Source: Blastocladiella emersonii ATCC 22665 (Eukaryota; Fungi; Blastocladiomycota). Taken from it: a stretch of 64,000 nucleotides of DNA. Made by a program: the position numbers and the translations under genes. The notes beneath the pieces were generated by a model that made no database searches, had not been told where the DNA came from, and saw only the letters and a program-made list of their open reading frames with translations. Within the stretch, counting starts at the first letter, position 1; each line of letters starts with the position of its first letter. The stretch lies in NCBI GenBank assembly GCA_025594325.1, contig JANHCV010000012.1, forward strand, positions 186,001 to 250,000, given 5' to 3'. This document shows positions 15,925 to 36,161 of the stretch, piece by piece.

Positions 15925-16247
15925 ATGCTTACGCCAAAGAGCGGTTGTCCATGGATGGGCTGTCTTTCAGACGCTTGCGCTCGCCTTATGTTCACCCGTA
16001 TCACCAGCGCCAGCGCGTTCGCTCAGCCGCGCGTGGAAAATTCCTACTTGTCGCAAATAAAAAACAGAAAGCAAAAGGAGTACCTCGCCGGTTCGGGCGC
16101 CCTTGCACAATATGCATCTGGGTTTGAACTCTTAGCCATTATCCCATTTCACATCTTGTAAACAAAGCCGCCGCGCTCCACCTGAGAGCTATCAATCAAC
16201 TTGGATAAAGTTATTCAATGCCACACCTCCCAACAAGCTTGGCATGT

Positions 16248-17023
16248 TGCCGTATCCCTTAAGGGATACGGCATGGGCTGACCCACCACCACCTGGGCTG
16301 ACCAATTGCTTACCCCGAGCGGTCGGCGGCAGTCACTCAGGCTAACCACGTGATCGGCAATGCGTTACCCCGGGTAATATATTGAGATTTGCCAAATGCC
16401 CCAGGGGTACGGCACGGGGGCGGGTGGCGGGTGGGTCACGTGGATCACGTGCAGATGAACGGCGCGTGGGCACGGCTGCGAGTCAATCTGCGAGACAAGT
16501 CCAAGAGCAGATCCCTGAGCCCGTCCCTGACCAACCGCTCGGGCTGACCATTGCTTACCCCAAGCGGTTGGCGGCGGCCGGCGAGCGCAGCGAGACAAAG
16601 AGCAGCGCAGCTGCGGCTACCCACTGACAGAGTTCCATGGTCTGGTCCCTGACCTGACCCCCGAGCCTGTCCCTGACCTGACCCCCGAGCCCGTCCCTGA
16701 CCTGACCCCCGAGCCCATCCCCGACCACCTGCCGCAAGCGGCTGCTATGAAGCCACTCACCGTAAAGGTTCCACTTTCATGGCATATTACGACAGAGTAT
16801 ATATATACACTACCCTTTTTTGCCATGAAAGTGGAACTTTCAAAGACAAGAGGTCAGGGTACGGGGGGGGGGGGGAAGGTTGAGGACAAGGGAGCGTCTT
16901 AGCAGCATCAATGTATTGGGCAGGACAGGGGTCAGGGCAAGGGAGCGTCTTAGCAGGCAGCATCTTAGCAGGCAGGAAGGCAGCGTGGCAGGTCGTGGAG
17001 TGTCTTAGAGCTCGTTGTTGTCC
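16248..17023 (+). repeat. Left terminal inverted repeat (776 bp)
   Basis: Reverse complement of 31614-32359; differs by one 24-bp unit, G-run length and about 3 substitutions; begins with 26-bp palindrome TGCCGTATCCCTTAAGGGATACGGCA. Confidence 0.95.
16768..16837. promoter_or_regulatory. Origin-like inverted repeat in TIR: 17-bp arms around a 36-bp AT-rich spacer
   Basis: GTTCCACTTTCATGGCA (16768-16784) / TGCCATGAAAGTGGAAC (16821-16837), TATATATATA in spacer; mirrored in right TIR. Confidence 0.55.
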
Positions 17024-17492
17024 AGCTTGAGGACAAAGGTCGGGGACTGCTGCGGGGTGGTCGTCCAGCTTGCCCAGTGAGCCGCGTGGCTGGTGAACTG
17101 ACCAACCGCGTGGCTGGGGAATTAGCGCTATCCCTTGCCCTATAAGAACCCCCCACCGCCCCCCTCCCCAGACCTGCTCTCCACCACCCACAACTGAAGC
17201 CATGACACAGATTCACTGCCTCAAGCCCCTGCTGGAGCGCGTATAGGCCATCTTGCTGCAATGAGCCCAACACACTCACAGGACTTTTGGTATGGGTGTC
17301 ATGGCCAACGTTGTGGGTGGTCAAAGTGTACGGCACAAGACGTACAGGGCTATCTGCTGTGCACGGCAATAGACTCAGTTGCTTGTGTCAGGACATGGAG
17401 CGCTGCGCGGACTTGCTACCCGTGCAGTTGCACCATGGACCTTTCTTCCTTTATCCTGTTGGCGCTGTGTGGTCAATGAGCTTTGGTCTGTG

Positions 17493-17604
17493 CTGGTGTC
17501 CTGGTGTGTTGGTGTCCTGGTGTCCTGGTGTGTTGGTCTCCTGGTGTCCTGGTGTGTTGGTGTCCTGGTGTCCTGGTGTCCTGGTGTCCTGGTGTGCCGG
17601 TGTA
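17493..17604. repeat. 8-bp tandem repeat (CTGGTGTC / TTGGTGTC / CTGGTGTG) with 24-bp higher order, about 14 units
   Basis: Directly visible. Confidence 0.9.
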
Positions 17605-18294
17605 CTGTGTGGTCGATGAGTACTTGGCAATGATGCCCTGCTCCACACTGGAACTCTGATTAGTGGTTGGCCACCATGAAAGGAGACTCCAGTGTGGGGC
17701 AGTCTGGGGGCTGCCTGGCCAGCAGCTCCTGGACGGGGGCGGAGCACCCATTGCTACGTTATGTCATTACAGGGGGCTGTGGTCACGTGACCAGTTGCCA
17801 TGGACTGTTTGGTGGTGATGATGGAAGCGCGTTCAACGCACAAGTCTTTGACTTCTTCTCTGAGCCTTCAGTAACCCATGCGGGGCTGCATCCTTGACAT
17901 CACTCCCCTGCCTCAACCGCCGTGCGACCACTTGGAGCCACCTCGGTGGGTCTATGACAACCAGTTCCTGCTGGCCACGGTAGTTTACCCATGCTGTCAT
18001 CACACGTACACTTACCGCCGTAACGACTACTAAGTCTTTGGTCTTCAGTCTTCAAGGTAGCATTCACTGTTAACTTGAAGGGGCGCTTACTCAAAGCGCA
18101 CGGTGTACACAACTTTGACGCCGGGTGGACTTGTGTCTCGGATGGCCGTGTACTGGCTCAGGAACTTTGGCCCTGGTGTGGTTGGAGAAGGTGTATGGGG
18201 TGGTGACAAAGTGCAGCCAGTAGCCTGGTTCATGGTGTTGTCTCTTACTACGTTGTCGGGAAAATAAACACATTGCGCTGATGCGTTGCTTAGT

Positions 18295-18399
18295 CTACGG
18301 CGCGAATATCTTTGAGCGCGCTGGAGGTGTACCAATGATGGCAAGGTTGGCCACAAGGATGACCACGTTGGCTGCAAGGACAAGTGTCTCAAGGATCAT
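18295..18399 (-). CDS. Viral 34-aa hydrophobic peptide
   Basis: MILETLVLAANVVILVANLAIIGTPPARSKIFAP; preceded by the shared motif TTTTTTGCTGTGTACATGTAAG-ATG. Confidence 0.4.
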   Translation of the reverse strand: MILETLVLAANVVILVANLAIIGTPPARSKIFAP

Positions 18400-18429
18400 C
18401 TTACATGTACACAGCAAAAAAGTCGCAGC

Positions 18430-19176
18430 TCAGATGAACGCAAGCTCAATGTAGAAGGGTTGCCCCAGGAAGTCAACAGAGCGCAGGTTCTTGTCCACCA
18501 CGTCAACGTCAATGGAGTCTATCAGCTGTGGTGTGCCTCGCGCGTCAAAGCGAAAGTAGTCGCTCATGTGTGGACGGTGCTTGAACCAGCTCCCAAACGG
18601 CTGTGTGACATGGATGCTGCACAGCACACCATTGTCCTGCGGGTACGCCAAGAACATGTTGTCCGCAAGGCGGCTGCCCAGGTTGTGCGAGTACACATGC
18701 AGCAGGTTGATGGGAGAGATGTTCACCAGAGATGTCCCGTACTGGACCTTGCTGTAGCCGTAGCTGCTGACAAAGCCCATGTGTGTGTTCAGCGCAGCGG
18801 CCCCTGTCCCAACAGTGAAGTCGCAGGTGTCATTGGCAATGCGCATCTTCTGTGTGGTGGAGTCAACCTGCACATCCCATGTGCCCTGCCACAGAAGACT
18901 TGACGGCGCGTTGTTGAGCAGGCTCTTGAGCGTTGACATGAACGTCTCAACTGTGTAGTTGCCGTCAGGGACAGTGATGGTCCCTGGGAAGGTCACACTG
19001 CCACGGCTCTGTGTCAGGTACACCTTGTTGGCCTTGGAGTTGACCGTGTGCCAGCTGTTGCAGAGGTATGCTGAGTTGACCTTGATGCCGCTCACAGACA
19101 CGGCCCGCGGGAGGTACAGCACACCGTTCTTGAGGTCGCGGCTGCAGATGGTCAGTGTCTTGTAGGAGCCAGTCAT
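18430..19176 (-). CDS. Minor capsid (penton-like) protein
   Basis: ITVPDGNYT, NISPINLLHVYS and IDVDVVDKNLRSVDFLGQPFYIELAF are typical of Polinton/PLV minor capsid proteins; located downstream of MCP. Confidence 0.8.
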   Translation of the reverse strand: MTGSYKTLTICSRDLKNGVLYLPRAVSVSGIKVNSAYLCNSWHTVNSKANKVYLTQSRGSVTFPGTITVPDGNYTVETFMSTLKSLLNNAPSSLLWQGTWDVQVDSTTQKMRIANDTCDFTVGTGAAALNTHMGFVSSYGYSKVQYGTSLVNISPINLLHVYSHNLGSRLADNMFLAYPQDNGVLCSIHVTQPFGSWFKHRPHMSDYFRFDARGTPQLIDSIDVDVVDKNLRSVDFLGQPFYIELAFI

Positions 19177-19197
19177 TTAAGTAAGGCTTAGAAGATA

Positions 19198-19464
19198 TTA
19201 TTGCACTGCCGTGCCTGTGTCGTTGTCGTCTGTCTCAAAGATCTCACTTGTTGGCCGGTTGTACCATGTGTGGATGTCCTGGGCCAGGTCAGCGCCCTTG
19301 GACACAAGCTGTGCCACAGACGACACGGCAGGGTTGTGCGAGCGCTCAAAGAACTTGGACACGGTCTTGACTCCCTTGAGCACGGTGGGGAGATGCTTGT
19401 TCACAAAGCCGCCTACCTGGCCGAGCACATTGCTGAAGTTGGTCCACAGGTTCCTGAAGATCAT
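19198..19464 (-). CDS. 88-aa viral protein with N-terminal amphipathic helix
   Basis: MIFRNLWTNFSNVLGQVGGFVNKHL; between MCP and minor capsid; shared upstream motif. Confidence 0.6.
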   Translation of the reverse strand: MIFRNLWTNFSNVLGQVGGFVNKHLPTVLKGVKTVSKFFERSHNPAVSSVAQLVSKGADLAQDIHTWYNRPTSEIFETDDNDTGTAVQ

Positions 19465-19503
19465 TGCGTTTAACTGTACGCAAGAAAAGAATGCACGCGG
19501 GGC

Positions 19504-20724
19504 TTACTTGTAGAGGTTGACCTTGCCGGTTGGGAGGAACTTGTACACAATGTCAACACCAACAAAGGCGTCAACACGCTGGTTTGGGACAGTGTTTGAG
19601 GTGAGGATGATCTGCATGTCCACGGCCTGGCTCTTGCAAGACTTGTCGCCGCTGACAATGGTACGGGATGACTCAAGGTTGCGGCCAATGCAGAAGGTCC
19701 CCTCAGCTGGCGCATTGTACTTGTCCACTGACATGCCTGCACCAATGACATGGCCATGGAAGGCGTTGGACAGCTCTACAAAGGCCTCTGAAGCGTAGTT
19801 GTCACAGCGGACAGGCTTCTGGGGGAAGAGACGGCCACTAACGCTGAACTGGTACGTTGCAATGGTCTTGGCACGGAGGAACAAGTCCTTGGCATTGTCA
19901 TTGAGCACTGCGTTGTTGCGGAACGACACCAGCACGTCCTTTTGTGACGCACTGCGGTCAGAGACGTTGAGCGTAGAGTTGGGCACCGAGTAGTTGAGGA
20001 AGTGGTGGTTGTACGTTGTGCCGTAGAGCTTGAGACCCTGGTTCTTGAAGGCAGCGTCCATGACAGCGATCTGCTGGTCATTGAGCTTGATCAGGTCAGA
20101 CACAATGCACACGTCCTTGACACTGTAGCTTGGGATGGCATTGTTCTTGACCACACAGGCATCTGCACCAGGAGCCAGGGTGAACTCGATGCGGATACCA
20201 CCAAGGTACTTCATGGGCAGATGCTTCTGGTTGGACAGCAGTGCAGACTTGATGGGCAGCATGTACCGGTGAAGTCCAGATGACACAGCAAAGCGGTCAG
20301 CCCCAGTGGCAAAGTAACCCTGGGCCATGCCAAGGCATGAGTCCTTGAGGTGCTGCGGGACAGTCACGTCAGCCTCAATGCGCTGACGCAGGTTGTAGTA
20401 GGGAAGCTCTTCCAGCAGGGCTCCACCCGCGCTGTAGACTTGCACACGGTCAATGATGCTGAAGATGCCATCACAGAAGGCGACGTTGGCATCTGCAGTC
20501 TTGGCACTGAACTGCAGGAACGTGCAGTGGGTGTCCATCATGTCATTGTGCGGGGGCAGGAGGACACTGATAGTGTTGCCAGGTGCAAACTTGGGGCCGC
20601 CCTGTGCAGTGAACTGGACAGTCTGGCGCTCGGCATACACAGACTCCTTGGGCAGGTTAAACGTCATCTCTGGCGGCAGAGTCTTTGACAGGACCTGGGA
20701 GAACTGGGCATTGGTGGAAGACAT
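19504..20724 (-). CDS. Major capsid protein (double jelly-roll type, PLV-like)
   Basis: 406 aa, beta-rich; FAPGNTISVLLP, SIIDRVQVYS..LEEL..YN, HLPMKYLGGIRIEFTLA; adjacent to ATPase and penton. Confidence 0.8.
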   Translation of the reverse strand: MSSTNAQFSQVLSKTLPPEMTFNLPKESVYAERQTVQFTAQGGPKFAPGNTISVLLPPHNDMMDTHCTFLQFSAKTADANVAFCDGIFSIIDRVQVYSAGGALLEELPYYNLRQRIEADVTVPQHLKDSCLGMAQGYFATGADRFAVSSGLHRYMLPIKSALLSNQKHLPMKYLGGIRIEFTLAPGADACVVKNNAIPSYSVKDVCIVSDLIKLNDQQIAVMDAAFKNQGLKLYGTTYNHHFLNYSVPNSTLNVSDRSASQKDVLVSFRNNAVLNDNAKDLFLRAKTIATYQFSVSGRLFPQKPVRCDNYASEAFVELSNAFHGHVIGAGMSVDKYNAPAEGTFCIGRNLESSRTIVSGDKSCKSQAVDMQIILTSNTVPNQRVDAFVGVDIVYKFLPTGKVNLYK

Positions 20725-20767
20725 GGCGTGTGTTACTGAAGCACAAGAAAAAAAGTCGCTGCGTTGC

Positions 20768-21568
20768 TTAGTCCTTGATGATCCACTCGCTGAAGCTGTC
20801 TACCAGCCTGTACTTGGGACTGTTCTGGTTGTTGACACCAAGGAAGCGTCGCTTGGTGTTGCCCTCTGAGCGGGTGTCAAAGAGCTGTTCAATGATCACC
20901 TCAAACTCCTTGAGCAAGAACTGCGACCCGATCTCCTTGTGCAGTGTCTTGACCTCTGTCTTGTTGTAGATGGGGTACACAACGCTGTAGCTGCAGTTGA
21001 TGCGCAGTGTCTTGGGCAGAGCACACCAGCGCTGCACGCCAATGATGCAGCTGATCTTGAGGTGTTGCGAGTTGCACAGGAAGTTGGTCAGCGTCTTGTG
21101 GGACAGCAGCTTGAGCCCCAGCACGTCGTCAATGATCAGCAGCTGGTCCTGCAGTGCCTTCTTGCCCTGGTCTTCAAAGGTCTTGGTCAGGTCTTTGTGC
21201 ATCTTGAGCAGCGTGGGGATGAACAGCTCTGGGTCCGTGACAATGCACGATGGCTTCACCTTGAGCCGGTTTGGGTTGTGCTCCTGTGGATCAAGTACAT
21301 TGTGCTGCTTCTTGGGTGGTCGCAGGATCGCCTGTGAGGCAATGTACTTGTACTTGTTGTCAGCATGGAAGGTGGGGTTGAAGACCCAGATGTTGTCAAA
21401 GCATCCCTTGTAGAACTGCGGGAAGCACACAAGGTTGGCGATCAGTGTTGACTTGCCCTGACCCTTGGCGCCAATGACGTTCATGGTGAAGGGGTGCTTG
21501 GGGATGGGCAAAGGCTGGTTGTCGTCGTTCCTGGTGAAGCTGTTGTCAATGGCCACAATGTCGTACAT
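20768..21568 (-). CDS. A32/FtsK-like genome packaging ATPase
   Basis: Walker A GAKGQGKS, Walker B LLIIDD, LRINC arginine-finger region; likely start MYDIV at 21568. Confidence 0.9.
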   Translation of the reverse strand: MYDIVAIDNSFTRNDDNQPLPIPKHPFTMNVIGAKGQGKSTLIANLVCFPQFYKGCFDNIWVFNPTFHADNKYKYIASQAILRPPKKQHNVLDPQEHNPNRLKVKPSCIVTDPELFIPTLLKMHKDLTKTFEDQGKKALQDQLLIIDDVLGLKLLSHKTLTNFLCNSQHLKISCIIGVQRWCALPKTLRINCSYSVVYPIYNKTEVKTLHKEIGSQFLLKEFEVIIEQLFDTRSEGNTKRRFLGVNNQNSPKYRLVDSFSEWIIKD

Positions 21569-21593
21569 CTTACTGTACCCCAAGACAAAAGGT

Positions 21594-21794
21594 TCACGCC
21601 CAGCCAAGGTCAGTGACAATGCCACTGCGCTTGGGGACTTCGCGCACTTGCTTGACTGGTCGCTCAGGGAGCTTCTGGTGACGCTTGATCTGGGGTGCTG
21701 TCAGGCCACTGCCGGCCAACGTCTTCTCTGTGAACAGCTTCACGTCCAGGGGCTTCTTGTAGCCCAGTTGCTTGAGGATCTGTTCGAGTAACAT
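21594..21794 (-). CDS. 66-aa basic viral protein
   Basis: K/R-rich ORF with shared upstream motif GTAGTAGTAAG. Confidence 0.45.
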   Translation of the reverse strand: MLLEQILKQLGYKKPLDVKLFTEKTLAGSGLTAPQIKRHQKLPERPVKQVREVPKRSGIVTDLGWA

Positions 21795-21848
21795 CTCTGT
21801 CTTCTTACTACTACCCTCGGAATTGTTCTTGGGCGCGTCTGCAAGCTG

Positions 21849-23312
21849 TCAGATGAGCTGCTCCAGGTTGCTGGTGTCCAGGACCTGTGGCTGTGCTGGC
21901 GGCTGCATCGTGTCCAGCTTGCTGCCCAGGTCCTGGAGTGTCTTGTTCACAGCAGCATTGGGCTCTGTCTGTCCCTGGATGGCGCTCTGGACACCTGTTG
22001 CAAGCTGGCCAATGAGTCCCTGCTGGTTGGTCAGGGCAGTTGACATGCCGCTTGCAATCTCAGACACCAGTGCACGGTTCCCTGCATCAATCTGTCGCAC
22101 AAAGGCGTTGCGCTCTGCACGCAGTGTGTCCACAATGTTAGCTGCAAGGTTGGCAAAGGTCTCAAGTGCCAGTCCTTGGGCGTTCTTGGACTGCTCAATC
22201 AGGGCCATGTATGCCTGGTACTGCATGACCTGACTGTTTGTGAACTGGCCAGCAATGACGTCCAGCGCAGCCATCACGTTGGGGTCGCTGTTGTACTGCA
22301 CCATGATCTGTGTACGCAGGTCATTGTTCTGCTGGTAGTAGTTCTGCTCGTACTGCGTGATGTACTGCCGCATGTTGTAGTTCTGCGTGTTGTCCTGCTG
22401 GAAGCTGCTGTACACGTATTGATTGAACTGCTGAAAGTTCTGGACAATGTCGACCTCCATGTCGTCTGTTGTGGTCAGTGCCCGCTCTGGGTTGTAGACC
22501 TGGATGTCCTTGGAGCTTTCAATCATCTGAGACTCGTTCATGGTGGGATGTACGTGTGTGTCATTGTACACAGAGCCGCGCTGTGGAAGGTCCTGTCCGT
22601 AGCTGGGAGGGACAACAACCAGGTTGCATGTGCCATTGTCGAGCTGGGGTGGAAGGTCATTGCCGCCGTCGTTGTCATTCTGGATCAAGTAACGTCCAGG
22701 GATCATGCCAGCGTACTCTGGGATGTCCTGGCCAACGTAGTCACCAGCGTCCACAGGGTACTCTTCAGGGACAACTGGGCAGACAGGTACAGGCAAGAGA
22801 TGGTCTGGCACACGCTGCCCTGCTGTCTCCAGCATCTCAGCAAGTTCGTCCAAGGTGTCCTGTGGCCTCTGTGAGCCTATGCCAGAGTCTTGTGTGCTTG
22901 GGACGTCTGGTGTGTCTGCGCCTGTGTCAGAGTCTGGCGTGCCTTCCTGTGCAACAGGAACACGTTGGATGCCACTGCTAACGCTTGTGCTTGCTTGCTT
23001 GATGGTGTCATAGACGTGCTGCATGACGCTCTCTGAGTCTTGCCCCATGATCTCTCCATTGTGTCTCAGGAACAGCATCCCTGATTGCTTGCCCTCAAAG
23101 TCGTCTGCATAGCTCTCTGGTGTGACAGCGTAGTCAAAGGCAAGGATGTACGGGACCCACACAGTGAGGAACTCCTTGGCTGTGGGGAAAGTGTACGTGC
23201 GTCCATCAATGGTGGCCTTGATCCTCTGGCCAGGCATGCGCTCTGCAGTGATACAACTGTTTGTCTTGGCTGCAACGTCTTCCAGTTGCTTGGTGATGGG
23301 TCTTTGTGTCAT
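21849..23312 (-). CDS. 487-aa viral protein of unknown function (Q/N/Y-rich middle, helical C-terminus)
   Basis: Intact ORF from MTQRP; CACCATG context and shared upstream motif. Confidence 0.7.
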   Translation of the reverse strand: MTQRPITKQLEDVAAKTNSCITAERMPGQRIKATIDGRTYTFPTAKEFLTVWVPYILAFDYAVTPESYADDFEGKQSGMLFLRHNGEIMGQDSESVMQHVYDTIKQASTSVSSGIQRVPVAQEGTPDSDTGADTPDVPSTQDSGIGSQRPQDTLDELAEMLETAGQRVPDHLLPVPVCPVVPEEYPVDAGDYVGQDIPEYAGMIPGRYLIQNDNDGGNDLPPQLDNGTCNLVVVPPSYGQDLPQRGSVYNDTHVHPTMNESQMIESSKDIQVYNPERALTTTDDMEVDIVQNFQQFNQYVYSSFQQDNTQNYNMRQYITQYEQNYYQQNNDLRTQIMVQYNSDPNVMAALDVIAGQFTNSQVMQYQAYMALIEQSKNAQGLALETFANLAANIVDTLRAERNAFVRQIDAGNRALVSEIASGMSTALTNQQGLIGQLATGVQSAIQGQTEPNAAVNKTLQDLGSKLDTMQPPAQPQVLDTSNLEQLI

Positions 23313-23350
23313 GGTGGTTACTGTATGAAGCAAAAATAAACCCCAGGCAA

Positions 23351-23494
23351 GGTACACTTTGCACCTGTTTGTGGTACACTTTGTACCGTCAAGGGTACAC
23401 TTTGCACCTGTCTGTGGTACACTTTGTACCGTCAAGGGTACACTTTGTACCTGTCTGTGGTACACTTTGTACCATCAAGGGTACACTTTGTACG
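23351..23494. repeat. Array of seven 15-bp imperfect palindromes GGTACA-CTT-TG(T/C)ACC in a 43-bp period
   Basis: Copies start at 23351, 23373, 23394, 23416, 23437, 23459, 23480. Confidence 0.95.
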
Positions 23495-23728
23495 TTGTGC
23501 ATTGCGCTTGGCATTGAGTGCCTTGTAGATGCGGATCTTGACGCGCTCTGCCCGTGCTGCCTCACTGTCAACGTGGACAAAGCGACTGGCCTTGCAGTCC
23601 CTCTTCTGTAGCCACTTGGCCTTGTTGTCGTCGCTCTTGTTGTACCAGTTGGATGGCACAGGGAAGGTCCCTGCAAGGTGTTCACGCCACTCATCAAGGG
23701 ACATGTCCTGGTACTCTGAGCAATTCAT
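23432..23728 (-). CDS. Possible small viral ORF (98 aa)
   Basis: MNCSEYQDMSLDEWREHL..; start lies only 19 bp from the divergent fibre start and its 3' end overlaps the repeat array. Confidence 0.35.
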   Translation of the reverse strand: MNCSEYQDMSLDEWREHLAGTFPVPSNWYNKSDDNKAKWLQKRDCKASRFVHVDSEAARAERVKIRIYKALNAKRNAQRTKCTLDGTKCTTDRYKVYP

Positions 23729-23747
23729 TTCTTGCACTAAGTTAAAC

Positions 23748-25688
23748 ATGGTCAAGAATATATTCAACGTGTCTACCAACGTGTCACCAACAGTGTCTGC
23801 CACAGGTGTCTCAGATGTGTCCAAGGCATATGTTGATGCTGCCATCAGTGCTGTCTATGCCACAGTTGGTGCACCTGTCGCTGGGCCTGGACTCAGCGTG
23901 TCAGGGACAACTGTCTCTGCCAAGGTCGATGACCAGACACTGGGTGTTGGTCCAAGCGGTCTCTATGTCAAGTCAATCAGTACGGCCCAGCTCCTGCCAG
24001 CCAGCGTCACTGCAGACAAGGTTGTGAGTGTCACAGCTGCACAGGTCACAGGTAAGCTTGTTGATGCACAGCTGGACACTGTGTCAGCATCCAAGGTCAC
24101 TGGTGTGCTCAGTGCGTCCAACCTTCCAGCGCTTGGGACAACGTCCATTGCAGATGGCTCTGTGACAGACGCCAAGGTTGCCTCAGTGTCTGGGTCCAAG
24201 CTGGTTCCGGGGACTGTCAACACAGCAGCTCTTGCAGACACCTCCGTGACAGACGCCAAGGTTGTCTCAGTGTCTGGGTCCAAGCTGGTTGCAGGAAGTG
24301 TCTCAACACCTGCTCTTGCAGACGCCTCAGTGACAGACGCCAAGGTTGCCTCAGTGTCCAGGTCCAAGCTGGTTCCAGGGACTGTCAGCACAGCAGCACT
24401 TGCAGACACCGCAATAACAGATGTCAAGGTTGCCTCAGTGTCCGGGTCCAAGCTGGTTCCAGGGACTGTCAGCACAGCTGCCCTTGCAGACGCTGCTGTC
24501 ACCAACGCCAAGCTGGCCACTGGTATAGACGGTGCAAAGCTCAACGTGTCATCTGTGGGAACAGCACACCTTGCAGCAGGGTCAGTCACTGATGCCAAGG
24601 TCACAGATGTGTCTGCCACCAAGCTGACAGGGACGCTTGATCCTGCACGCATTGCAGACAGTTCACTGACCAATGCCAAGCTGGCCACTGGGATAGACGC
24701 TGCCAAGTTGTCTGGGACCATTGACCTTGCACGACTGCCTGACGTGTCCAGCAAGGTGTCAAGTGTCAACGGAGCCATTGTCACTGGGACGCTCCCCCAG
24801 TCCACCCTTGGACTTGGCAGTGTCTTTACCTTTGCCAGTACTGTGGACAGCACATCAACGTCCACTGGGGCAGTCACTGTGGCAGGTGGCCTTGGTGTGG
24901 GCAAGCAGCTCACTGTGCCAAACGTCCTTGTCCGGAACACAGTCAGTGCAAATGTGGTCTTTGACTCTGCTGCCAACACACTCACATACATTGACTTCAA
25001 GCAAGCAGGTGTCCTGAAGAGCAACCTGGCATGCACTGCACTGGGCACCATTGAGATCGCTTCAGCAACCAATGGTGGTGTGTCCTTGGCTGCAGGTGGC
25101 GGCAATGTGGTTGTGGGCTCGGCGACGCTTGGCACAGAAAAGCTCTGTGTCAATGGCACTGGTCGCTTCACAGGGCAGCTCACCCTTGACCTCGCTCCAG
25201 TGGCAGGCACCGACGCAGCAAACAAGGCGTACGTTGACTTGCGGTCTGGCATGACCTGGTACGTTGCTCAGGCTGAGCACCGCTCTACAAACAGAGTGAC
25301 CACGGGCGGCAAGATCATTGGCGGCACAGCATTGACGGGCCCGGCCACCTTTGCGTTCCAGTCCACGGCGGGCGCGTTCACATCTGTGATCAATGGATGC
25401 GTCAAACCCCCTGTCAGTGGCTACTACCTCGTCCATGCAAAGGGCTACTACGCAAACGGCACGCTCCCTGGATCCCACACTGTGAACTTTGCGCTGTACA
25501 ACATGACGGACATGATTGCAGTGTCGCTTGTCACCGGGTGCCGCGCTGAAGGCAACGTCCAGTTCCTTCAGTTCTTGAGCATCGAGTACCTTGACGCGGC
25601 CAAGAGCTACTCTTTCATCTGGATCCCGTTGGTCGCAGTTGCCAACAACTGCCAGGTCATCATTCAAAGCCACTGGACCCTGCTCTAA
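23748..25688 (+). CDS. Fibre/spike-like virion protein, 646 aa
   Basis: 28-aa (84-bp) repeats VTDAKVASVSGSKLVPGTVSTAALADTS, KAYVD motifs, STSTGAVTVAGGLGVG, C-terminal beta-rich head (KPPVSGYYLV). Confidence 0.75.
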   Translation: MVKNIFNVSTNVSPTVSATGVSDVSKAYVDAAISAVYATVGAPVAGPGLSVSGTTVSAKVDDQTLGVGPSGLYVKSISTAQLLPASVTADKVVSVTAAQVTGKLVDAQLDTVSASKVTGVLSASNLPALGTTSIADGSVTDAKVASVSGSKLVPGTVNTAALADTSVTDAKVVSVSGSKLVAGSVSTPALADASVTDAKVASVSRSKLVPGTVSTAALADTAITDVKVASVSGSKLVPGTVSTAALADAAVTNAKLATGIDGAKLNVSSVGTAHLAAGSVTDAKVTDVSATKLTGTLDPARIADSSLTNAKLATGIDAAKLSGTIDLARLPDVSSKVSSVNGAIVTGTLPQSTLGLGSVFTFASTVDSTSTSTGAVTVAGGLGVGKQLTVPNVLVRNTVSANVVFDSAANTLTYIDFKQAGVLKSNLACTALGTIEIASATNGGVSLAAGGGNVVVGSATLGTEKLCVNGTGRFTGQLTLDLAPVAGTDAANKAYVDLRSGMTWYVAQAEHRSTNRVTTGGKIIGGTALTGPATFAFQSTAGAFTSVINGCVKPPVSGYYLVHAKGYYANGTLPGSHTVNFALYNMTDMIAVSLVTGCRAEGNVQFLQFLSIEYLDAAKSYSFIWIPLVAVANNCQVIIQSHWTLL

Positions 25689-25714
25689 AGCCCACGGTCC
25701 CACTTTTCTTGGAC

Positions 25715-26797
25715 TCAGACTGGGACGCGCCTGACCCAGGTCGAGGGCTCCCTTGGCGTGACCGGGGTGCGCGCAGCAGGGAGCCTTGGAAAACTTGGAC
25801 CTACGCGCTGCCTTGTTGGCGGGTCCTGGGTCGCTGTGACTGGCTGGACGTTGCTGCGTGGATAGAAGCCCTTCAAGTCACCAACCTTGTACAACGGGTT
25901 GCTCACACCAGAGCCCTTGCGGACAGCTGTGACTTGGTGCACTGTGGACGTCCATACTGGCTTTCCCTTTGCTTCCATGGCTGTCTTGTACGGCTCACGG
26001 ACACGTACCTGTGTTCCAACTTTGAGCAGCGCACTGAGTGGGTCACCCTCTGGCTTGCCCTTGGCAGCACGGATGGCCTTGAGTGTGTCCTTGGCAGCGT
26101 CTTGCGGCATGTCATGGAAGTCATTGGGCGCCTTGCCTGTAGCTCTGGACTTGCTGCTGTTGATCACGGACTCTATGGTCTCAAGGTACTTTGGCCAGTT
26201 GTTGTTGCCTTCAATGGACAGCCACGGTGTCAGCATCCTGCGAATGGTCCCGTTCATACGCTCAATGACACCTTGACCGTACGGCACACCTGCCTTGCCT
26301 TTGATGTGCTTTGCGCCTGTCCCCGCTTCAATGCCATTGAACTCTGTGCCATTGTCTGTCTGGATGGTTGCTGGTGTCAGGTTATGCTTGGAGACAACGT
26401 TGTCCCATGCCTGCCGTGTCAGGTCCTTGGTCTTGACTGGACGCAGGAACACGCGTTGAGTTGCCAAGTCTACACAGGTAAGAATGTACCTGAACCCGTT
26501 GAAGGTACCTTTCTTGCCCATGTCTATGAGGTCCAGCTGCCAGTTGCAACTGGGGCTCGTTGAGTTGATGCTTTGGATGTCGCGCCGCTTCTGTGGTGCA
26601 CGCTTGTACTGCTGCCACACAGACTGCTCATTGAGCCACCTCCCTAGCTGTGCGCAGTACACGCGGTCACCAGTGTTCTCTCTGGACACAATGTCAAAGA
26701 GCCAACAGATACCAACACCTACATGGCCGCGCTTGTAGTACAGGTCACTGAGGAACGCTTGCTGTGCGTCTGTGAGTGGTGCTTCGTGTGGATACAT
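25715..26797 (-). CDS. Retroviral-type (rve) DDE integrase, Polinton-like
   Basis: WQLDLIDM (D), IQTDNGTEF (D), GVIERMNGTIR (E), C-terminal KVGTQVRV SH3-like segment. Confidence 0.92.
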   Translation of the reverse strand: MYPHEAPLTDAQQAFLSDLYYKRGHVGVGICWLFDIVSRENTGDRVYCAQLGRWLNEQSVWQQYKRAPQKRRDIQSINSTSPSCNWQLDLIDMGKKGTFNGFRYILTCVDLATQRVFLRPVKTKDLTRQAWDNVVSKHNLTPATIQTDNGTEFNGIEAGTGAKHIKGKAGVPYGQGVIERMNGTIRRMLTPWLSIEGNNNWPKYLETIESVINSSKSRATGKAPNDFHDMPQDAAKDTLKAIRAAKGKPEGDPLSALLKVGTQVRVREPYKTAMEAKGKPVWTSTVHQVTAVRKGSGVSNPLYKVGDLKGFYPRSNVQPVTATQDPPTRQRVGPSFPRLPAARTPVTPREPSTWVRRVPV

Positions 26798-26820
26798 TAC
26801 ATTACGGCAACAAAACAAGG

Positions 26821-27981
26821 TCAGACAAGGTAGTGGGCCACGGCGACAGGTACGCTGTGACCCATCTCAGCAGCACGCTTGGCCACGGCCTTGTACGCGT
26901 CCTTGTTCTCACTGGTGCTGATGCGGCGGATCTGCTGGACACCGCACCCCTTGAAGCCAACGTCCTGTGCTGCCAGCGCAATGGTCTTGGACCAGTCTTT
27001 GCGGACCTTGGCGTTGACCTGAGCATCACAGACGTTGTCCAGGCTGTGGTTGTAGAAGACCAGGTCATGGCCGTCAGCAAGACGCTTGGCAATGACGCGC
27101 TCAAGGGCAGCAGCAACCTTGGGGTCAGCAATGACATGCGAGAACCCATAGCCACGGCCATCTGTCTTGACGCACACAGGGCCGGCCAGCGTCTTGGTCT
27201 CGGGGTTGTAGCTTGGGTACTTGTCACTGGGCTTGGTGGTCAGGAACGCAAGGTCACTGCAGGTTGCACAGACGACTTGGAGGTACAGACGCAGAGCACG
27301 CATTGTGCCAGACACCTGGTATGTGTCCCAGTTCTCAGCAGCAACAACAGCAGCCAGCAAGTCTTCATGGCTTGGGAGTGCACCAGTCTCCACAGCCTTG
27401 CGCGCGTCAAGGTGAGCTTCAGCGTCCTGCTTCTTGGTCTGCGTGTACTGTGCAGCAAGGTCGTCATTGCCATTCCACTTGCAGTACTTGGCCAGCGCCT
27501 TGAGCGTCTCAACCTGCAGACCCTGTGCCTTGTCTGTGCCCTTGGTTGCACGGTACGTCTCCACAGCCTTTGTCACACTGTTGACGTCCTCAATGGCCAG
27601 CCCCAACTTGCAGAACGCAGTCAGCACGCGACACAGCTTGGACTGGTCATCGGCACTGAGCTGGGACACTTGGCCGTACTTGTTCACCACAGGCTCGCTG
27701 GCACGCGCCTTGATGGATTCCTCAGTCATCTGCGCGTACTTGACCTGGGGATCAGTGTCCATGGGCTCGCCAGACTCATTGGTGGGGGTGTGATTGGAAC
27801 TGTGATTGCAGTCACGTGACACTGCAGCCAGCGCAGCGAGGCTGGTCTCGACTCCCTTGAGCCGCTCATCAAAGGACGCCAGCAGCGGCTTGATACCATC
27901 AAGCACTTGGTGCACTACGTCGGCGGCAACGTGCTGAGCAACAACCTTGGACACCTGGGACACAAGCGCTTTGAGAGACAT
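26821..27981 (-). CDS. Tyrosine recombinase (catalytic Arg apparently replaced by Cys)
   Basis: LYL..ATCSDL (PLRNDY-like box I), VKTDGRGYG (K), QQIRR, AAEMGHSVPVAVAHY (box II). Confidence 0.8.
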   Translation of the reverse strand: MSLKALVSQVSKVVAQHVAADVVHQVLDGIKPLLASFDERLKGVETSLAALAAVSRDCNHSSNHTPTNESGEPMDTDPQVKYAQMTEESIKARASEPVVNKYGQVSQLSADDQSKLCRVLTAFCKLGLAIEDVNSVTKAVETYRATKGTDKAQGLQVETLKALAKYCKWNGNDDLAAQYTQTKKQDAEAHLDARKAVETGALPSHEDLLAAVVAAENWDTYQVSGTMRALRLYLQVVCATCSDLAFLTTKPSDKYPSYNPETKTLAGPVCVKTDGRGYGFSHVIADPKVAAALERVIAKRLADGHDLVFYNHSLDNVCDAQVNAKVRKDWSKTIALAAQDVGFKGCGVQQIRRISTSENKDAYKAVAKRAAEMGHSVPVAVAHYLV

Positions 27982-28069
27982 CTTACCGTAGCCCCAGAAA
28001 AGAAGGCGTCACTGCTCAAGTGCGTTTGGCGGTATTGTTAAATATATTGTGCGTCGATAGTAGGACACC

Positions 28070-31000
28070 ATGTACTACGACAGTGACAGCGACAGCCATG
28101 TCCCCAACCCCCTTGATGAGTTCCTGCTTAGCATTGCTTACTGCAGAGGCAAGGTGGTTGACTTTGACAAGGTGAAGGCCTTGACCATGGACGCTGCACG
28201 CAAGGCATGGCTGGGCAATGACGAGTCTCTGGCAGAGGCCATGAAGACGCTGCGTGTTGTTATTGCCCGTCTTGCAGTGTTGCAGCACGTCCAAGGGGCG
28301 CCTGTGAAGACACAGCAGCTGTACGACAGCACGTCAATGAAGCGGCTCCTGCCAGACATCCCCTTGAAGAAGGGTGCTCCCTCAATTGACTTTGACCAGC
28401 TTGCACAGGACACGATGCACAGGACGGGACAAGGACACGATGCACAGGGCAGGCCAACCAGGACGGGACAACGACACAATGCACAGGACAGGCCAATGAC
28501 ACAATGCACAGGACAGGCCATGCCAACAAGGGCTCCCAGGGCACAGTCATTAACGCTAAATCCTGCGCGTTTAAACGCACCTGTCCTGTCACCCTTTCTG
28601 TTACCTCATCATAACAACATGGTCTGCAATCAGGTTCCCGGTAAACATGGCACTGCCTTTGGTCTCAAGTGGTTCCATGGCAAGGATGGTGGCAACAGCG
28701 ACATGGGCCCTCAGCGCACGCTCTTGTCCAAGCTGCAAGACAACAAGACGGTCATCAAGCGCCTTGTTGACAAGGGCGTCGACAACCACGGCCAACCCAA
28801 GGCGGCGCACTACTTTGCCAAGGTCAAGACAGCTGACCTGGCCGGGCTCCTTGACAAGAACCGCTGCATCCAGGAGATGGTCCACCCCAAGCGCCTGTCC
28901 AAAGTCTACTTTGACATTGACTGCCCGGGCAACCGCAAGGACGTGACCCTGGACGTCATCAAAAAGGTCATCCTGGCCCAGTTCCCCGGCGCCAACCTCC
29001 AGGTCTGTGGCTACAAGACGGACCTCAAAAAGGCGTGGCACATTGTCCTCAGCAACTACACGGCCACGCTCAAGGACATGCCGTTCCTGAAGCTGTTCTG
29101 CAGCCACCCCGACCATGTCAAGCTTGGCTTTGACTCCAGCGTGTACAGCAAGCACCGCTTCATGAAGTGCATCAACCAGTCCAAGCCCAAGAAGATGCCC
29201 GGCGTGTGGATCTTGGGTAACAAGGACCGCCTTCCAAGCACTTGATCCAGTGCGACTTTGACCACAACTGCGCGTCGGTCTTGGACCTGTCCTTTGAAGA
29301 GTTTGTGACTGCCAAGGCCAAGGAAGCGCGGACCAAGCGCCACGCGGGTCGCCTTTGCACATCCTTGAACTTGGGGATGTCAAGGTCGTGCAGATCGACC
29401 CCGACTTCTTCTACTACAACGCCACGCCACTTGAGATCCTCCACAACATCCCCATCAGCCCCGAGAACGCGTTCCACAACAACGTGACCTGGCGGATCAT
29501 GACATGGGCCATGCGCAAAGGGGTCACATTTGACCAGTTCTGGGCGTGGACGTCGCAGCAGGACAACTTGGCTCAGCGCATGCAAAAGTACTGGGGCCGA
29601 TGGAACGAGATTGCCAGCAACGACAACTACCAGGTGCTGGACACGTTTGTCAAGGCCATCTTCTACAAGCGGTTCCCAGCCGTGTTCAAGTCCAAGGCCA
29701 TGGCCAAGTTTGAGCAGTCGCTTGAGGTACCAGTGGACGTGACCAGCCCCAACTAGTTCCTGTCCTGCGACAACATTACCCTGGCCAAGTTCAACATGCT
29801 GGCCACGGGCATGGGCTCCAACAAGACGGCGCTGTGTGCGACTACATTGCCAAGTACCCAGACGCGTGAGTGGTCTGGATCACACCTTGCATCACCCTGG
29901 CCCACAACACCGAGGGTCGAGCCCGCAAACAGAAGCTTGGCTTTGTCAACTACTGCAGCATCAAGGACAAGAAGACACTGGGGGATCACAAGCGACTCAT
30001 TGTCTCGCCGTGCTCGCTGCACTACTTGACCGAGCCCTACAACATTGTTGTGGTGGACGAGTCCAAGACGGTCCTCAAGGTGTTCCAGGACGCCAAGTTG
30101 CACACAACCACCATTCGCAACAACCTCGAGGCCAACCTCAAGGCCTTCAAGACGCTGTGCGAGCACAAGGGCAGCAAGGGTATCTTCATGGACGAGTTTG
30201 TCACAAACCTGACCATGGACGTCCTCCGCTCCTTTACTGTCAAGCACAACATCAAGACCATACTCCATGGTAAGATCAAGGTGATCACGAACACGCTTGG
30301 CAAGAAGTTTGAGCCGCGCAAGATGAGCCTCATCACTGACGACAAGGATGAGGAGAAGTCCGCCAAAGACATCATGGAGAGCAACATCATTGCCGACCTC
30401 AAGGCCAACAAGAAGCTCTACCTCTTCATCCCACAACCATTCAAGAAGTCAACCAAGTGGTTGGTGCAGACCTTTGGCAAGTACCTCGAGCTGGTCTTTG
30501 CCAAGGAGAAGTGGAAGATTGGCAAGCAGATCAAGCTCTACCACGGCGACCGCCCCAACCACGAGGACAAGGAACTCATTGACCCTGACTCTGTGTGGTG
30601 TGGGGCAACGATACGGTCCGTATAGTCATCGCCAACCTCAAGATCACTGTGGGGGTCAACTTTTTGAAGCCATACGTCTTCCACAAGGTGTACGCGCGCT
30701 ACAAGTCCTGGGTCCCTGCCCACGACTTCTTCCAGGCAATCTACTGCGTGCGCTACCCCATTGACAACAAGATCGTGTTCATGATCAGCCATGGTTGCCG
30801 CAGCGCGTACATGAACAAGTTACAGGTCATTGACTCGGACTTGGTTGGCAAACTTCACCGGGCTATTGTCAAGAACACAGATCTTGAGAACAAGATGGCC
30901 GCTGTGACCTTCTGCCTCAAGGTCTTTGACGCCTTCCGCAAGGTCGCCAACATTGTCATGGACGACTCCCCCGAGTACTACTACAAGGCGCACCCCGAGA

Positions 31001-31632
31001 TTAAGGATGTCATGACGTTGGGCTGGTCTTTTGAATGGGCAAACGTCCAGCTACCGTCCAAGGAGATCATGCGCGCCTACTGCAAAGGTACCATCAAGGA
31101 CCCAGACTGGACCATCTCCCTCTCTGTCCGCAAGGCCTTCTTCATCCGCAAGTTCAATGGTCTGAGCATGGACAACATGAAGATCATCTGGGACGACAAC
31201 GCGGAGAGCTTCATGGAGCGTATCCAGCACTTTTACACCAAGGACAAGGGCCACGTCCTGCAAAAGCTCCTGGAACACAACAACATGGACCTCTGCACGT
31301 CCAAGGAGTTCAACATCCAGGCCACCATCCCCGCCAAGTTTGAAGCAGACATCCATAAGTACTTCAAGAAGCTTGGGTATTACAAGTGTGACACAGCAAC
31401 AGTCCAAAACAGGCTTCTCAGCACTTACTTTAACAAGTGCCTTGCTGTGCCAGACAAGGACGAACCCTGGGTCTCAGTACGCGGCAAGAAGTACAGGAAC
31501 CTGAAGTGGACAGACAACATTCTGTACTTTGTCATGTACGAGACCTGGACCCCACCCCCAGCCAATCCGGCCCCGTTTGTCCTGGAGATGGACAAGGACG
31601 AGGACAACAACGAGGACAACAACGAGCTCTAA
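28070..31632 (+). pseudogene. PrimPol-type AEP primase + PriCT-like + UL9/OBP-like SF2 helicase; at least 4 frameshifts and 2 stops
   Basis: VYFDID, AWHIVL, GFDSSVYSKHRFMK (AEP, from Met 28619); TWRIM..FWAW..YWGRW; GMGSNKT and VVVDES helicase motifs; stops at 29754 and 29867. Confidence 0.85.
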
Positions 31633-32359
31633 GACACTCCACGACCTGCCACGCTGCCTTCCTGCCTGCTAAGACGCTGCCTGCTAAGACGCTCCCTTGC
31701 CCTGACCCCTGTCCTGCCCAATACATTGATGCTGCTAAGACGCTCCCTTGTCCTCAACCTTCCCCCCCGTACCCTGACCTCTTGTCTTTGAAAGTTCCAC
31801 TTTCATGGCAAAAAAGGGTAGTGTATATATATACTCTGTCGTAATATGCCATGAAAGTGGAACCTTTACGGTGAGTGGCTTCATAGCAGCCGCTTGCGGC
31901 AGGTGGTCGGGGATGGGCTCGGGGGTCAGGTCAGGGACGGGCTCGGGGGTCAGGTCAGGGACCAGACCATGGAACTCTGTCAGTGGGTAGCCGCAGCTGC
32001 GCTGCTCTTTGTCTCGCTGCGCTCGCCGGCCGCCGCCGACCGCTTGGGGTAAGCAATGGTCAGCCCGAGCGGTTGGTCAGGGACGGGCTCAGGGATCTGC
32101 TCTTGGACTTGTCTCGCAGATTGACTCGCAGCCGTGCCCACGCGCCGTTCATCTGCACGTGATCCACGTGACCCACCCGCCACCCGCCCCCGTGCCGTAC
32201 CCCTGGGGCATTTGGCAAATCTCAATATATTACCCGGAGTAACGCATTGCCGATCACGTGGTTAGCCTGAGTGACTGCCGCCGACCGCTCGGGGTAAGCA
32301 ATTGGTCAGCCCAGGTGGTGGTGGGTCAGCCCATGCCGTATCCCTTAAGGGATACGGCA
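31614..32359 (-). repeat. Right terminal inverted repeat (746 bp)
   Basis: Includes the last codons of the helicase ORF; ends in the 26-bp palindrome 32334-32359. Confidence 0.95.
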
Positions 32360-32631
32360 CATGTAGTCCAGCTCTCTCTCAATGAATTGAGAATGGTTCT
32401 GAAGCGGGTGGCGGCTGTTGATGCCGACAGAAGGAGGCAGGAGACAAGTAGTCAGGAATGTCTATTCCTGCCTTTTGCCCCAAACCCAAGACGGGGAGAG
32501 GGGAGAATGGATAAAAAAGCAGGGCGCGCCGCAGCGGGGTGCGGCGGCGCGGGAGCGAGGGATTGCGGGCGGCTCACGCGAGATCAGATGATTGATCACC
32601 ACGGTTGTGGCCGCATGAACGACACGCAACA

Positions 32632-34479
32632 TCACCTCCCCCCAGACCTGAGCGACTTGACGAACCCTTGGTGCACCGCGTTCTTGAGCTGGCGACCGGA
32701 CCGGCTGCGCGTGATGGATGACGGCGGGTTGGGCGAGGGTGAGCGCGCGCGCTTCGGGTTGGCGCGGGCGGGCGATGAGGCAGCCGAGGACTGCGTGACT
32801 GAGAACTGCGACTTGTCGGCCGAGACTTGGCGAGGAGCAGGATCTTGGCGTGGAGCGGGCACAGGGGAAGACGCGGCGACTTTGGGGGCGAGACGCTGCA
32901 GCAAACGCTGGCGCTCGAGCCAGGTGTTGGCCGAGATCTTCTTGTGGTAGTCGTTGATGGCGCCAGCGGTGTCAAAGCTGCTGGTGGGGATCCACGAGTT
33001 CTTGGCGGAGCGATCGGACCAGCGGACCAGGTACTCGCGCTCGCCATTCGCGCCGTTGCAATGACGGAGGATGTTGCGCACGGTGTCCAATTCGCCCAAA
33101 GGCGCCGACTCGGGCTGGATGAGGCGCAGGTGGTGCGCGGGGTAGATGGACTCGGTCATGAGCTTGAGGTGAGCGAGCTGCTCCTGCTTGGTCATGTCGC
33201 GGAGGGGCGGCTGCGCGCGGTCGTTGCAGAGCGCGTTGGTGGGACGCGCGAACATGAGCGAGAAGGGCGTCGAGCTGTGGCGCGCGTGCGCGCGCGTGTT
33301 GTAGGGGTACTGGATGGCCGGGACCATGGCGGGCCAGCGGTTGAGCTGCCTGTTGAGCGAGGGGAGCAGCGTCTCCTTGACCGAGCGAACGAGACGCTCC
33401 GAGGCGCCGTTGGCCTGCGGGTGGTACGGCGACACGAGGTGGCAGTCAATGCCGGCCATGTTGGCGAGCGAGGCGATGATCTGGTTGGCGAACTCGGGGC
33501 CGTTGTCGGACTGGATGATGCGCGGGAAACCGAACTGGAAGCACGTGGCCAGGAAGCAGGTGGCGACCTCGCCGGCAGACGCGGAGCGGATCGGGTGCAG
33601 CCACGCGAACTGGGTGCAGATGTTGATGATCACGAGCACGTGCGTGTATCCGTTGGGCGAGATGGGCAGCTGCATGCAGTCCATGGACAGGTGGTCGAGC
33701 GGCAGCAGCGCCTCAATCGAGCGCATCGGGTGGAAACCCTGCCGCGTGGCCGAGAACCGCGCGCACGGGATGCAACCGGCAATGACGCGCTGGCAGTCGG
33801 CGAGCATGCCAGGCCATTCGTGGCCGAGGACGACAAGCTGCTGCTGTGTGGCCGCGGGACCCAAGTGGCCCCTGCCGTGCACGTCGTGGATGATCTGGTC
33901 GCGCTGGTCACACGGAACAGGCGCCGTGTCGAGGCGCTGTGCAGGCGGGATGGTGCCAATGGGCGAGAACTTGGGCCGCGGCGCGCTACCCTTGGGGGCG
34001 GGTGCGGCGGCGACAACGCGGGCGTGCGCGGCGGGCACAGGTGTTGAAGAAGAGCTGCCCCCATGGGTGGGTGCGGCAGCAAAAGCGCGGGCCCGCTCCG
34101 CGGGCGGGAGCGAGGCCGGCGCGAGGAAGAAGTGTCGAGCACGATTCTCCGCAAGGGAGAGATCGTGCGTCATGAGCTGCTCGAGCTCGCCGTCGCCGAG
34201 GGCACACTCGGGGAAAGACGGCGCGGGTGTTGAAGAAGAGCTGCCCCCATGGGTGGGTGTGGCAGCAAAAGCGCGGGCCCGCTCCGCGGGCAGGAGCGAG
34301 GCCGGCGCGAGGAAAAAGTGTTGAGCACAATTCTCTGCGAGGGAGAGATTGTGCGTCATGAGCTGCTCGAGCTCGCCGTCGCCAAGGGCACACTTGGGGA
34401 GAGACGGCGCGGGAGAGGATCTGGAGGGACCCCCCCCCCCACCAGCGGGCGCCCACGGGGGGAACGCGATACAGGACAA
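32632..34479 (-). pseudogene. Retrotransposon integrase + chromodomain
   Basis: HGRGHLG..CIPC zinc motif, HLSMDC, IIQSDNGPEF, QANGASER, EYLVRW..SWIP chromodomain; internal tandem duplication near 34020-34400. Confidence 0.85.
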
Positions 34480-35816: not shown

Positions 35817-36161
35817 AAAAATGCGGGCGTGCCCAGCCAGTCGGGGTCGACCGCACCGGCGCTGTCGTGCTCACGGCGCGCACCAGAGCGGGCGGGGGCG
35901 GCGAAATGCGCGACGGGACCGAGGCGGCCGCGAAGGGGATCGTCGTGGGTGACGGTGGCAGCGCGGGCCGAGGTGGGGCCGAGGCGGGAGCCGACAATGA
36001 TGTGGTAGAACTTGTCGAGCAGGTGCGCGAACAGGCTGGTGGCAGACGCTGGCAGGAGGGCGAGGACACGGAGGTGGTGGGCGAGCAGGGGCTGGGAGCG
36101 GGGAATGCCGTCGACCGCGCGGGCAGGCGAGGAGATGAACTTGGAGCGGGAGCGCTCAAGG

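Follow-up and report, generated by a model that had tools for sequence, protein, structure and literature searches.

What is a perfect palindrome doing at both extreme ends of an endogenous virus in the fungus Blastocladiella emersonii? Within the 64-kb stretch of DNA analysed here (the window), a 16,112-bp element with TG...CA ends is flanked by a 5-bp target-site duplication (TSD) and carries the palindrome TGCCGTATCCCTTAAGGGATACGGCA at its left and right limits (Table 1). We describe the ends, the genes between them and the ends of sibling copies, and weigh what the palindrome may do when the virus leaves or enters the host genome.

Perfect palindromes bound the element

The 26-mer is a perfect 13+13 palindrome, and CATGT adjoins both copies; among seven boundary shifts tried, one register alone gives a 5-bp duplication, with CATGT flush against the palindromes. 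Coordinates, a search allowing mismatches and this boundary-shift test all confirm the preliminary description, which had placed a perfect 26-bp palindrome at both extreme termini, directly against the TSD. It is the longest of the 11 perfect palindromes of at least 14 bp in the window (runner-up 20 bp). Allowing up to three mismatches, the 26-mer occurs at two places only in the window, with none expected (100 shuffles), and the chance of 13 pairs at one fixed place is about 2e-8; the two copies count as one event because each is the outer end of a terminal inverted repeat (TIR). The left junction (16050–16276) is reproduced with no differences in contigs of three of four runs, all from one sample that is possibly the source sample. 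A search of viral contigs for the exact 26-mer gave no matches. The terminal palindrome is real and well defined, and it is probably functional.

The left palindrome opens with TG and closes with CA, and its inner border reads GGCA/TGGG (16273/16274, the slash marking the border). Folding the 26-mer as DNA gives −12.1 kcal/mol for an 11-bp stem closed by a 4-base loop, with the 3′ end paired and flush, a hairpin that is retained on both strands when folded in a 140-base context. The two TIRs are separated by three substitutions, all transitions, and 30 gap columns. Between 16278 and 16702 lie seven CTGACC motifs, a duplicated block of ~45 bp (16293–16330 and 16539–16580) and a 24-bp unit that differs in number between the two TIRs; just inside the left TIR, at 17465–17631, an array of 8-bp units (GGTGTCCT-like) sits in a 1.4-kb stretch to which no genes are assigned.

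Two further mobile elements share the window. An LTR retrotransposon (32416–37784; RT, RNase H and integrase; LTRs 94% alike) starts ~56 bp to the right of the virus. We rejected the idea that the TSD was borrowed from this neighbour, whose LTR starts at ~32416 and does not supply the duplication. A small element at 1352–2789, bounded by 93-bp inverted repeats that are 97% complementary, is probably a non-autonomous DNA transposon.

Table 1. Features of the endogenous element, in window coordinates
Feature	Position	Strand	Details or basis
Left target-site duplication CATGT	16243..16247	.	
Left terminal inverted repeat	16248..17023	.	776 bp
Left terminal perfect palindrome	16248..16273	.	26 bp
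Subterminal copy of inner palindrome border	16405..16418	+	12/14; mirror 32189-32202
Internal imperfect inverted repeat	16765..16840	.	76 bp; 17-bp perfect arms, 36-bp spacer 72% AT
Putative minor capsid protein	18430..19176	-	248 aa; size and position only
Major capsid protein (likely)	19504..20724	-	406 aa; relatives and profile
A32-like packaging ATPase	20768..21568	-	PF04665, E 2.6e-11
Fibre-like repeat protein	23529..25688	+	719 aa; tail-fibre PHROGs, E 4e-9
rve integrase, open frame	25715..26797	-	360 aa; rve E 3.5e-6, below curated cut-off
Tyrosine recombinase	26821..27981	-	Cys241 at first catalytic Arg position; K272, R352/353, H375, Y384 present
Replication gene, broken, five pieces	28070..31632	+	four frame changes, one stop
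Right terminal inverted repeat	31614..32359	.	746 bp
Mirror copy of internal inverted repeat	31791..31866	.	
Right terminal perfect palindrome	32334..32359	.	26 bp
Right target-site duplication CATGT	32360..32364	.	

A Polinton-like virus with no detected protein-primed polymerase

The element is an endogenous Polinton-like virus (PLV) in which no protein-primed DNA polymerase B (pPolB) was detected. PLVs are recognized by a size of 15–40 kb, TIRs, an RVE or tyrosine recombinase (YR) integrase and a TSD, all of which are found here, with both enzymes encoded. The pPolB that strictly defines Polintons/Mavericks is missing from what we found: none of 98 stop-to-stop frames of at least 75 aa matches a polB family or motif, and the element has no unassigned space of pPolB size. 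Motif and Pfam scans likewise detected no HUH nuclease and no Holliday-junction resolvase, although negative Pfam scans have limited power on this element, whose capsid, recombinase and primase Pfam misses. TIRs, RVE integrase, TSD (5–6 bp in Polintons/Mavericks; PMC8547959), major capsid protein (MCP) and ATPase are common to both groups; the present element differs in having no detected pPolB or protease.

The 406-aa protein is, on sequence comparison, likely a double jelly-roll capsid protein. It matches seven B. emersonii clusters at 80–96%, and 541 relatives are found at E 0.001 or better. A profile built from 94 of them gives a single, weak match among solved chains (8h2i, MCPv1, E 0.0034), and a PDB search with a smaller, 14-row profile came back empty or spurious. 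Unnamed capsid relatives (P0016–P0027) of 23–38% identity come from contigs (Logan, JGI and ENA) no longer than 15 kb. The 248-aa frame, which lies where a minor capsid gene is expected, has no family match in Pfam or PHROGs. In the rve integrase, D89, D148 and E179 can be read as the DDE triad; a search for its relatives returned one distant match and no B. emersonii copy inside the length window of that search.

The first piece of the broken replication gene carries what we take to be primase-polymerase-like motifs, followed by an SF2 helicase presumably of the origin-binding-protein type. The primase motifs found no database match (including a PDB sequence search and a phage tblastn of the primase piece), and a PDB sequence search with the helicase piece was empty or spurious. 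In the Atlas the helicase piece reaches 0.93 with an origin-binding-protein cluster (PF02399 on 34% of the third cluster) and with DEAD/ResIII clusters. The evidence leans towards a gene of primase-helicase type, its helicase closest to the origin-binding family. Near the middle of the element, between divergent genes at 23351–23493, are seven alternating 21/22-bp units that start GGTACACTTTG and contain CACTTT, as do the internal TIR hairpin's arms; these units could be iterons.

All five lesions of the replication gene fall within 29220–30625 (1.4 kb), and the frames of the capsid, ATPase, fibre, integrase and recombinase genes are all open. Confinement of lesions to this gene, together with TIRs that differ by three substitutions, suggests that the copy replicated and inserted with sibling help. 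Across 16248–32359, CpG observed/expected is 0.59 (1.22–1.24 in the host flanks), with a TpG/CpA excess of 1.54/1.58; this depletion likely reflects a methylation-driven decay that viral DNA undergoes in the fungus.

Ends of sibling copies

All seven capsid clusters and all seven recombinase clusters that we found bear Blastocladiella emersonii as their source, and 20 recombinase sequences lie on 11 contigs, from which we infer about 20 copies of the element family in this species. The contig depth summed over the TIR (40–100x that of the flank) was rejected as a measure of copy number, as it adds overlapping contigs together. When contigs of four runs (one sample, uninduced genomic DNA) are aligned to the left end, at least eight flanks besides the window's own join at the outer edge of the palindrome, diverged copies included, among the records listed (26 of 65, and 20 of 21 rows for loose ends). 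Two of these flanks end GTCAT and ATGAC, which are reverse complements and thus mark another insertion together with its 5-bp duplication. The five ends whose first letters can be read all start TG (two TGCC, two TGT and one TGTT). Among the contig matches listed for the four runs, no end starts at the inner edge (16274), and there is no fold-back or strand-changing joint and no head-to-head junction.

Variation inside the palindrome is read within one constraint: differences 30 letters or fewer from an alignment end go unlisted, so palindrome variants near contig ends are hidden. The TGT-type pieces have exactly one further difference within 16252–16281, a range that covers the partner position 16271. 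In the TGTT end there is one further difference where full compensation requires two, so one pair or more must be broken; this can fairly be read as decay after insertion, because the C concerned sits in a CpG and the element is CpG-depleted. An earlier inference of conservation, from the lack of listed variants inside the palindrome, was withdrawn, each listed row having its contig at least 31 letters from the alignment end. One contig, from one low-depth run, has an extra T at the apex, which we did not take as a variant. No related locus was confirmed in viral contigs (queries A1, P0197, P0016 and A4) or in metagenome contigs (A1 and P0197).

A proposed cycle with hairpin ends opened by the integrase

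We favour, at a probability of roughly one half, a cycle in which the free genome has hairpin ends and the rve integrase opens them at GGCA/TGGG, giving this proviral anatomy. From the directly observed anatomy, gene content and boundary common to the copies we infer a hairpin state, a priming step and an integrase cut. The palindrome would record, in unfolded form, a hairpin end of the free genome, used to finish the ends without a protein-primed polymerase. A displaced strand would fold back on the palindrome and then either prime synthesis or become a sealed, closed end. Cleavage after CA at the inner border by the rve integrase, at the hairpin foot or in a head-to-head junction, would leave a 26-base 3′ extension that ends in CA-OH; strand transfer, followed by gap filling by the host, would set a full palindrome beside a 5-bp duplication at each end. 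CA before TG is the specificity of retroviral integrases. HIV integrase is described as able to cut an internal palindromic end-to-end junction (PMC1905944).

Hairpin ends are supported by palindromes flush with the duplication at both ends, TG...CA termini, the outer edge common to at least eight other flanks, an open rve frame, a replication gene of primase-helicase type with no pPolB found, and the predicted fold. Against them, a primase could start the ends de novo, and no compensatory change is seen in the terminal palindrome; the nicking step leans on a presumed activity of the integrase, because no HUH nuclease or Holliday-junction resolvase was detected. Hairpin priming in the manner of parvoviruses, one of two mechanisms put forward in the preliminary description, fits every test applied (the fold, the lack of a detected pPolB and the parallel in Halocafeteria elements considered below), but the listed contigs hold no fold-back or head-to-head junction. 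The other, a telRL-like site for the encoded tyrosine recombinase, emerges weaker: the enzyme has a core-binding domain of the Xer/lambda-Int kind and in most copies stops within 2–5 residues of its Tyr, and a resolved telRL would leave half-palindromes, so that a second cut is needed. An end made by telomere resolution would carry half the palindrome as duplex, and full proviral palindromes would then require a cut at the hairpin foot. That description had no source for such a cut; an rve integrase cutting after CA supplies it and makes both mechanisms look alike in the provirus. Since one integrase cut gives the same outcome in a hairpin or a junction, the provirus by itself accommodates fold-back priming, recombinase-made hairpins and circle excision equally.

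A tyrosine recombinase and its possible site

The enzyme encoded beside the integrase is a tyrosine recombinase of minimal, Xer-like two-domain build. It has the core-binding domain and the R-K-(H)-R-H-Y set of the superfamily, the window copy having Cys for the first Arg (Cys241, codon TGC), which bears out the earlier suggestion of a tyrosine recombinase that has lost its Arg. Among 19 relatives examined, two could not be scored at this position; Arg is present in 16 of the 17 that could, and one is also Cys. The Lys, Arg, His and Tyr motifs are kept and most copies end 2–5 residues from the catalytic Tyr. The first His of H-x-x-R is absent, a trait also of telomere resolvases.

A structural model from a 16-sequence alignment is confident only for residues ~10–115 (the catalytic half has pLDDT <50), and this N-terminal domain matches the core-binding domains of Xer and lambda-Int (XerA: Z 8.2, rmsd 2.4, 90 aligned). 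The top seven VIA-align rows are all recombinase or integrase-type entries, counting the SroF row, which we take to be of this type; no telomere resolvase appears among the 50 rows listed, a result that does not exclude the family. Foldseek returns nothing at E 0.001, with Cre ranked first (E 0.57) and TelA 19th (E 2.3); a PDB sequence search with the recombinase profile was empty or spurious, and Pfam gave no match to the ResT-TelK catalytic domain. The 30 best Atlas matches are unnamed clusters, the three shown being viral and most commonly Preplasmiviricota; of the clusters with names, phage integrase comes first (0.96, 170 features), followed by ResT/TelK (0.95, 147 features).

These features raise a second, distinctly more tentative reading, in which the palindrome is the core site of the recombinase: the ends would be recombined into a circle, the junction resolved into closed hairpins, or both, and the integrase would re-insert the product. 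Seen as a recombinase core, the palindrome has a symmetric 6-bp centre, CTTAAG, with 10-bp arms on either side. The family keeps its enzyme (the Arg in 16 of 17, and the K, H and Y motifs) although rve explains integration, and both the missing first His and the ResT/TelK cluster at 0.95 lie in the direction of resolvases. Phaeoviruses are described as excising by a tyrosine recombinase and linearizing at a telRL-like palindrome (PMC13236599), and two substitutions are reported to switch TelA to a Cre-like recombinase (PMC13221069). Yet the confident part of the model resembles Xer/lambda-Int core-binding domains and the nearest named Atlas cluster is phage integrase; the pairing of YR and RVE is known in virophages, where the Halocafeteria preprint (10.64898/2026.07.28.741278) reads it as integration into two kinds of target. 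The window enzyme has moreover lost its Arg while the ends are intact (action in trans would be possible), and the element offers other candidate sites, such as its internal inverted repeat.

Also conceivable, if unlikely, is an N15-like cycle in which both enzymes use the one 26-bp site. The Xer-like recombinase would excise the provirus and cap the linear genome with hairpins, and the integrase would open these at CA/TG, with integration regenerating full palindromes. Such a cycle, if true, would explain how rve-integrated DNA viruses excise, the step so far missing, and would give each of the two enzyme families a new role.

Internal repeats and possible protein binding

Each TIR holds the internal inverted repeat, and in the right arm of the left-end repeat (16765–16840) five transversions are listed among diverged copies. 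For runs X1 and X4 the class totals leave room for exactly five more transversions, not listed (A>C, G>C, G>T, T>G and T>A), which are the changes that pairing predicts for the left arm (rough chance 0.004); run X2 has the predicted left-arm changes plus one more, and run X3 two of them only. This pattern points to compensatory change between the arms among copies. The repeat is a candidate replication origin for the origin-binding-type helicase or, because genes on both sides run towards it, a candidate transcription terminator. A similar layout is found in herpesvirus oriS, where an AT-rich spacer stands between two inverted boxes bound by an SF2 origin-binding helicase (PMC12543377).

The palindrome may instead serve only as a symmetric site, at an open duplex end, to which a dimeric protein binds (the integrase, the helicase or a host factor), the primase priming the ends de novo with no hairpin in vivo; this we regard as doubtful. 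The 14-mer of the inner border matches four times in the window against 0.38 expected, with one independent extra site, and this 12/14 copy recurs 141 bp inside, as binding sites do; each TIR also has its oriS-like, AT-centred inverted repeat, and the helicase leans to the origin-binding family. A binding site, however, has no need of perfect symmetry through the centre. Palindrome lengths vary by host (26 here, 52 in Halocafeteria subtype 5 as described), which fits an apex-to-cut distance better than a fixed footprint, and association with non-pPolB modules points to end replication.

Improbable, finally, is a functionless by-product of accidental annealing or template switching in excision, repair or integration, or an assembly artefact: the Halocafeteria preprint raises by-products as an alternative (10.64898/2026.07.28.741278) and the present copy is decayed (broken replication gene; CpG 0.59 against 1.22–1.24 in the flanks), but the palindrome has the same length and the same boundary at either end and in further insertions, diverged ones included, the junction is found in contigs of three runs, and no other perfect palindrome above 20 bp exists in the 64 kb.

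Known systems and significance

The closest parallel to the hairpin cycle that we favour comes from Halocafeteria seosinensis, for which a preprint of July 2026 (bioRxiv 10.64898/2026.07.28.741278) describes palindromes inside TIRs and adjoining TSDs in virophage subtypes 1, 2, 5 and 6 as well as in PLV subtype 4. There they accompany non-pPolB genes and certain RVE integrases, and the authors propose priming by hairpins. By this account the two systems have in common a palindrome in the TIR beside the TSD, a non-pPolB replication gene and an RVE integrase. They differ in palindrome length (26 bp here, 52 nt in subtype 5), in host (fungal versus stramenopile) and in the origin-binding-type SF2 helicase found here; RVE and YR occur together in a PLV here, and in Halocafeteria, as described, only in virophages. 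The likeness drawn here is one of arrangement.

In the parvovirus rolling-hairpin mechanism the terminal palindrome folds back and primes, and a nick at the hairpin foot duplicates it. Our palindromes would be analogous in being able to fold back and prime; they differ in bounding a double-stranded, capsid-encoding element of 16 kb, in forming a perfect, unbranched 26-nt hairpin and in the lack of a detected HUH nuclease. Telomere resolvase systems (N15 telRL/TelN, TelA, ResT and phaeovirus EVEc) are described with a single internal palindrome and ends that carry half-sites (PMC13236599, PMC13221069). A perfect palindrome with a symmetric 6-bp centre and an enzyme of the tyrosine recombinase family in cis are common to these and our element, which differs in its full palindromes at both proviral ends, its marks of rve integration and its short, Xer-like two-domain enzyme. 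In PLVs associated with entomopoxviruses, a recombinase acting on inverted repeats beside a primase-helicase has been suggested (PMC11296320).

PLVs are reported from zoosporic fungi, as an element of Spizellomyces punctatus (PMC7805220) and as chytrid A32 ATPases (bioRxiv 10.64898/2026.06.19.733378). As described, these resemble ours in being integrated and TIR-bounded with an MCP, an A32 ATPase and RVE or YR, with TSDs of 5–7 bp; neither text contains 'palindrom' or 'hairpin'. In the literature covered we found no report of a Polinton-like element for Blastocladiella, and the 2023 protist survey is described as excluding fungi.

Terminal palindromes and the hairpin idea are thus already in print for PLVs and virophages; the present element extends them to a blastoclad fungus and is not a new category. 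To this we add a concrete role proposed for the rve integrase as a cutter of hairpins or junctions. The combination of a palindrome with a non-pPolB replication gene is probably general, because it is also present in a fungus, far from the protist of its first description. This family bears on how PLVs lacking a protein-primed polymerase copy their ends and on the way out for those integrated by rve. Because the fungus can be cultured and has about 20 copies, many of which encode complete enzymes, comparison of the ends and biochemistry are straightforward.
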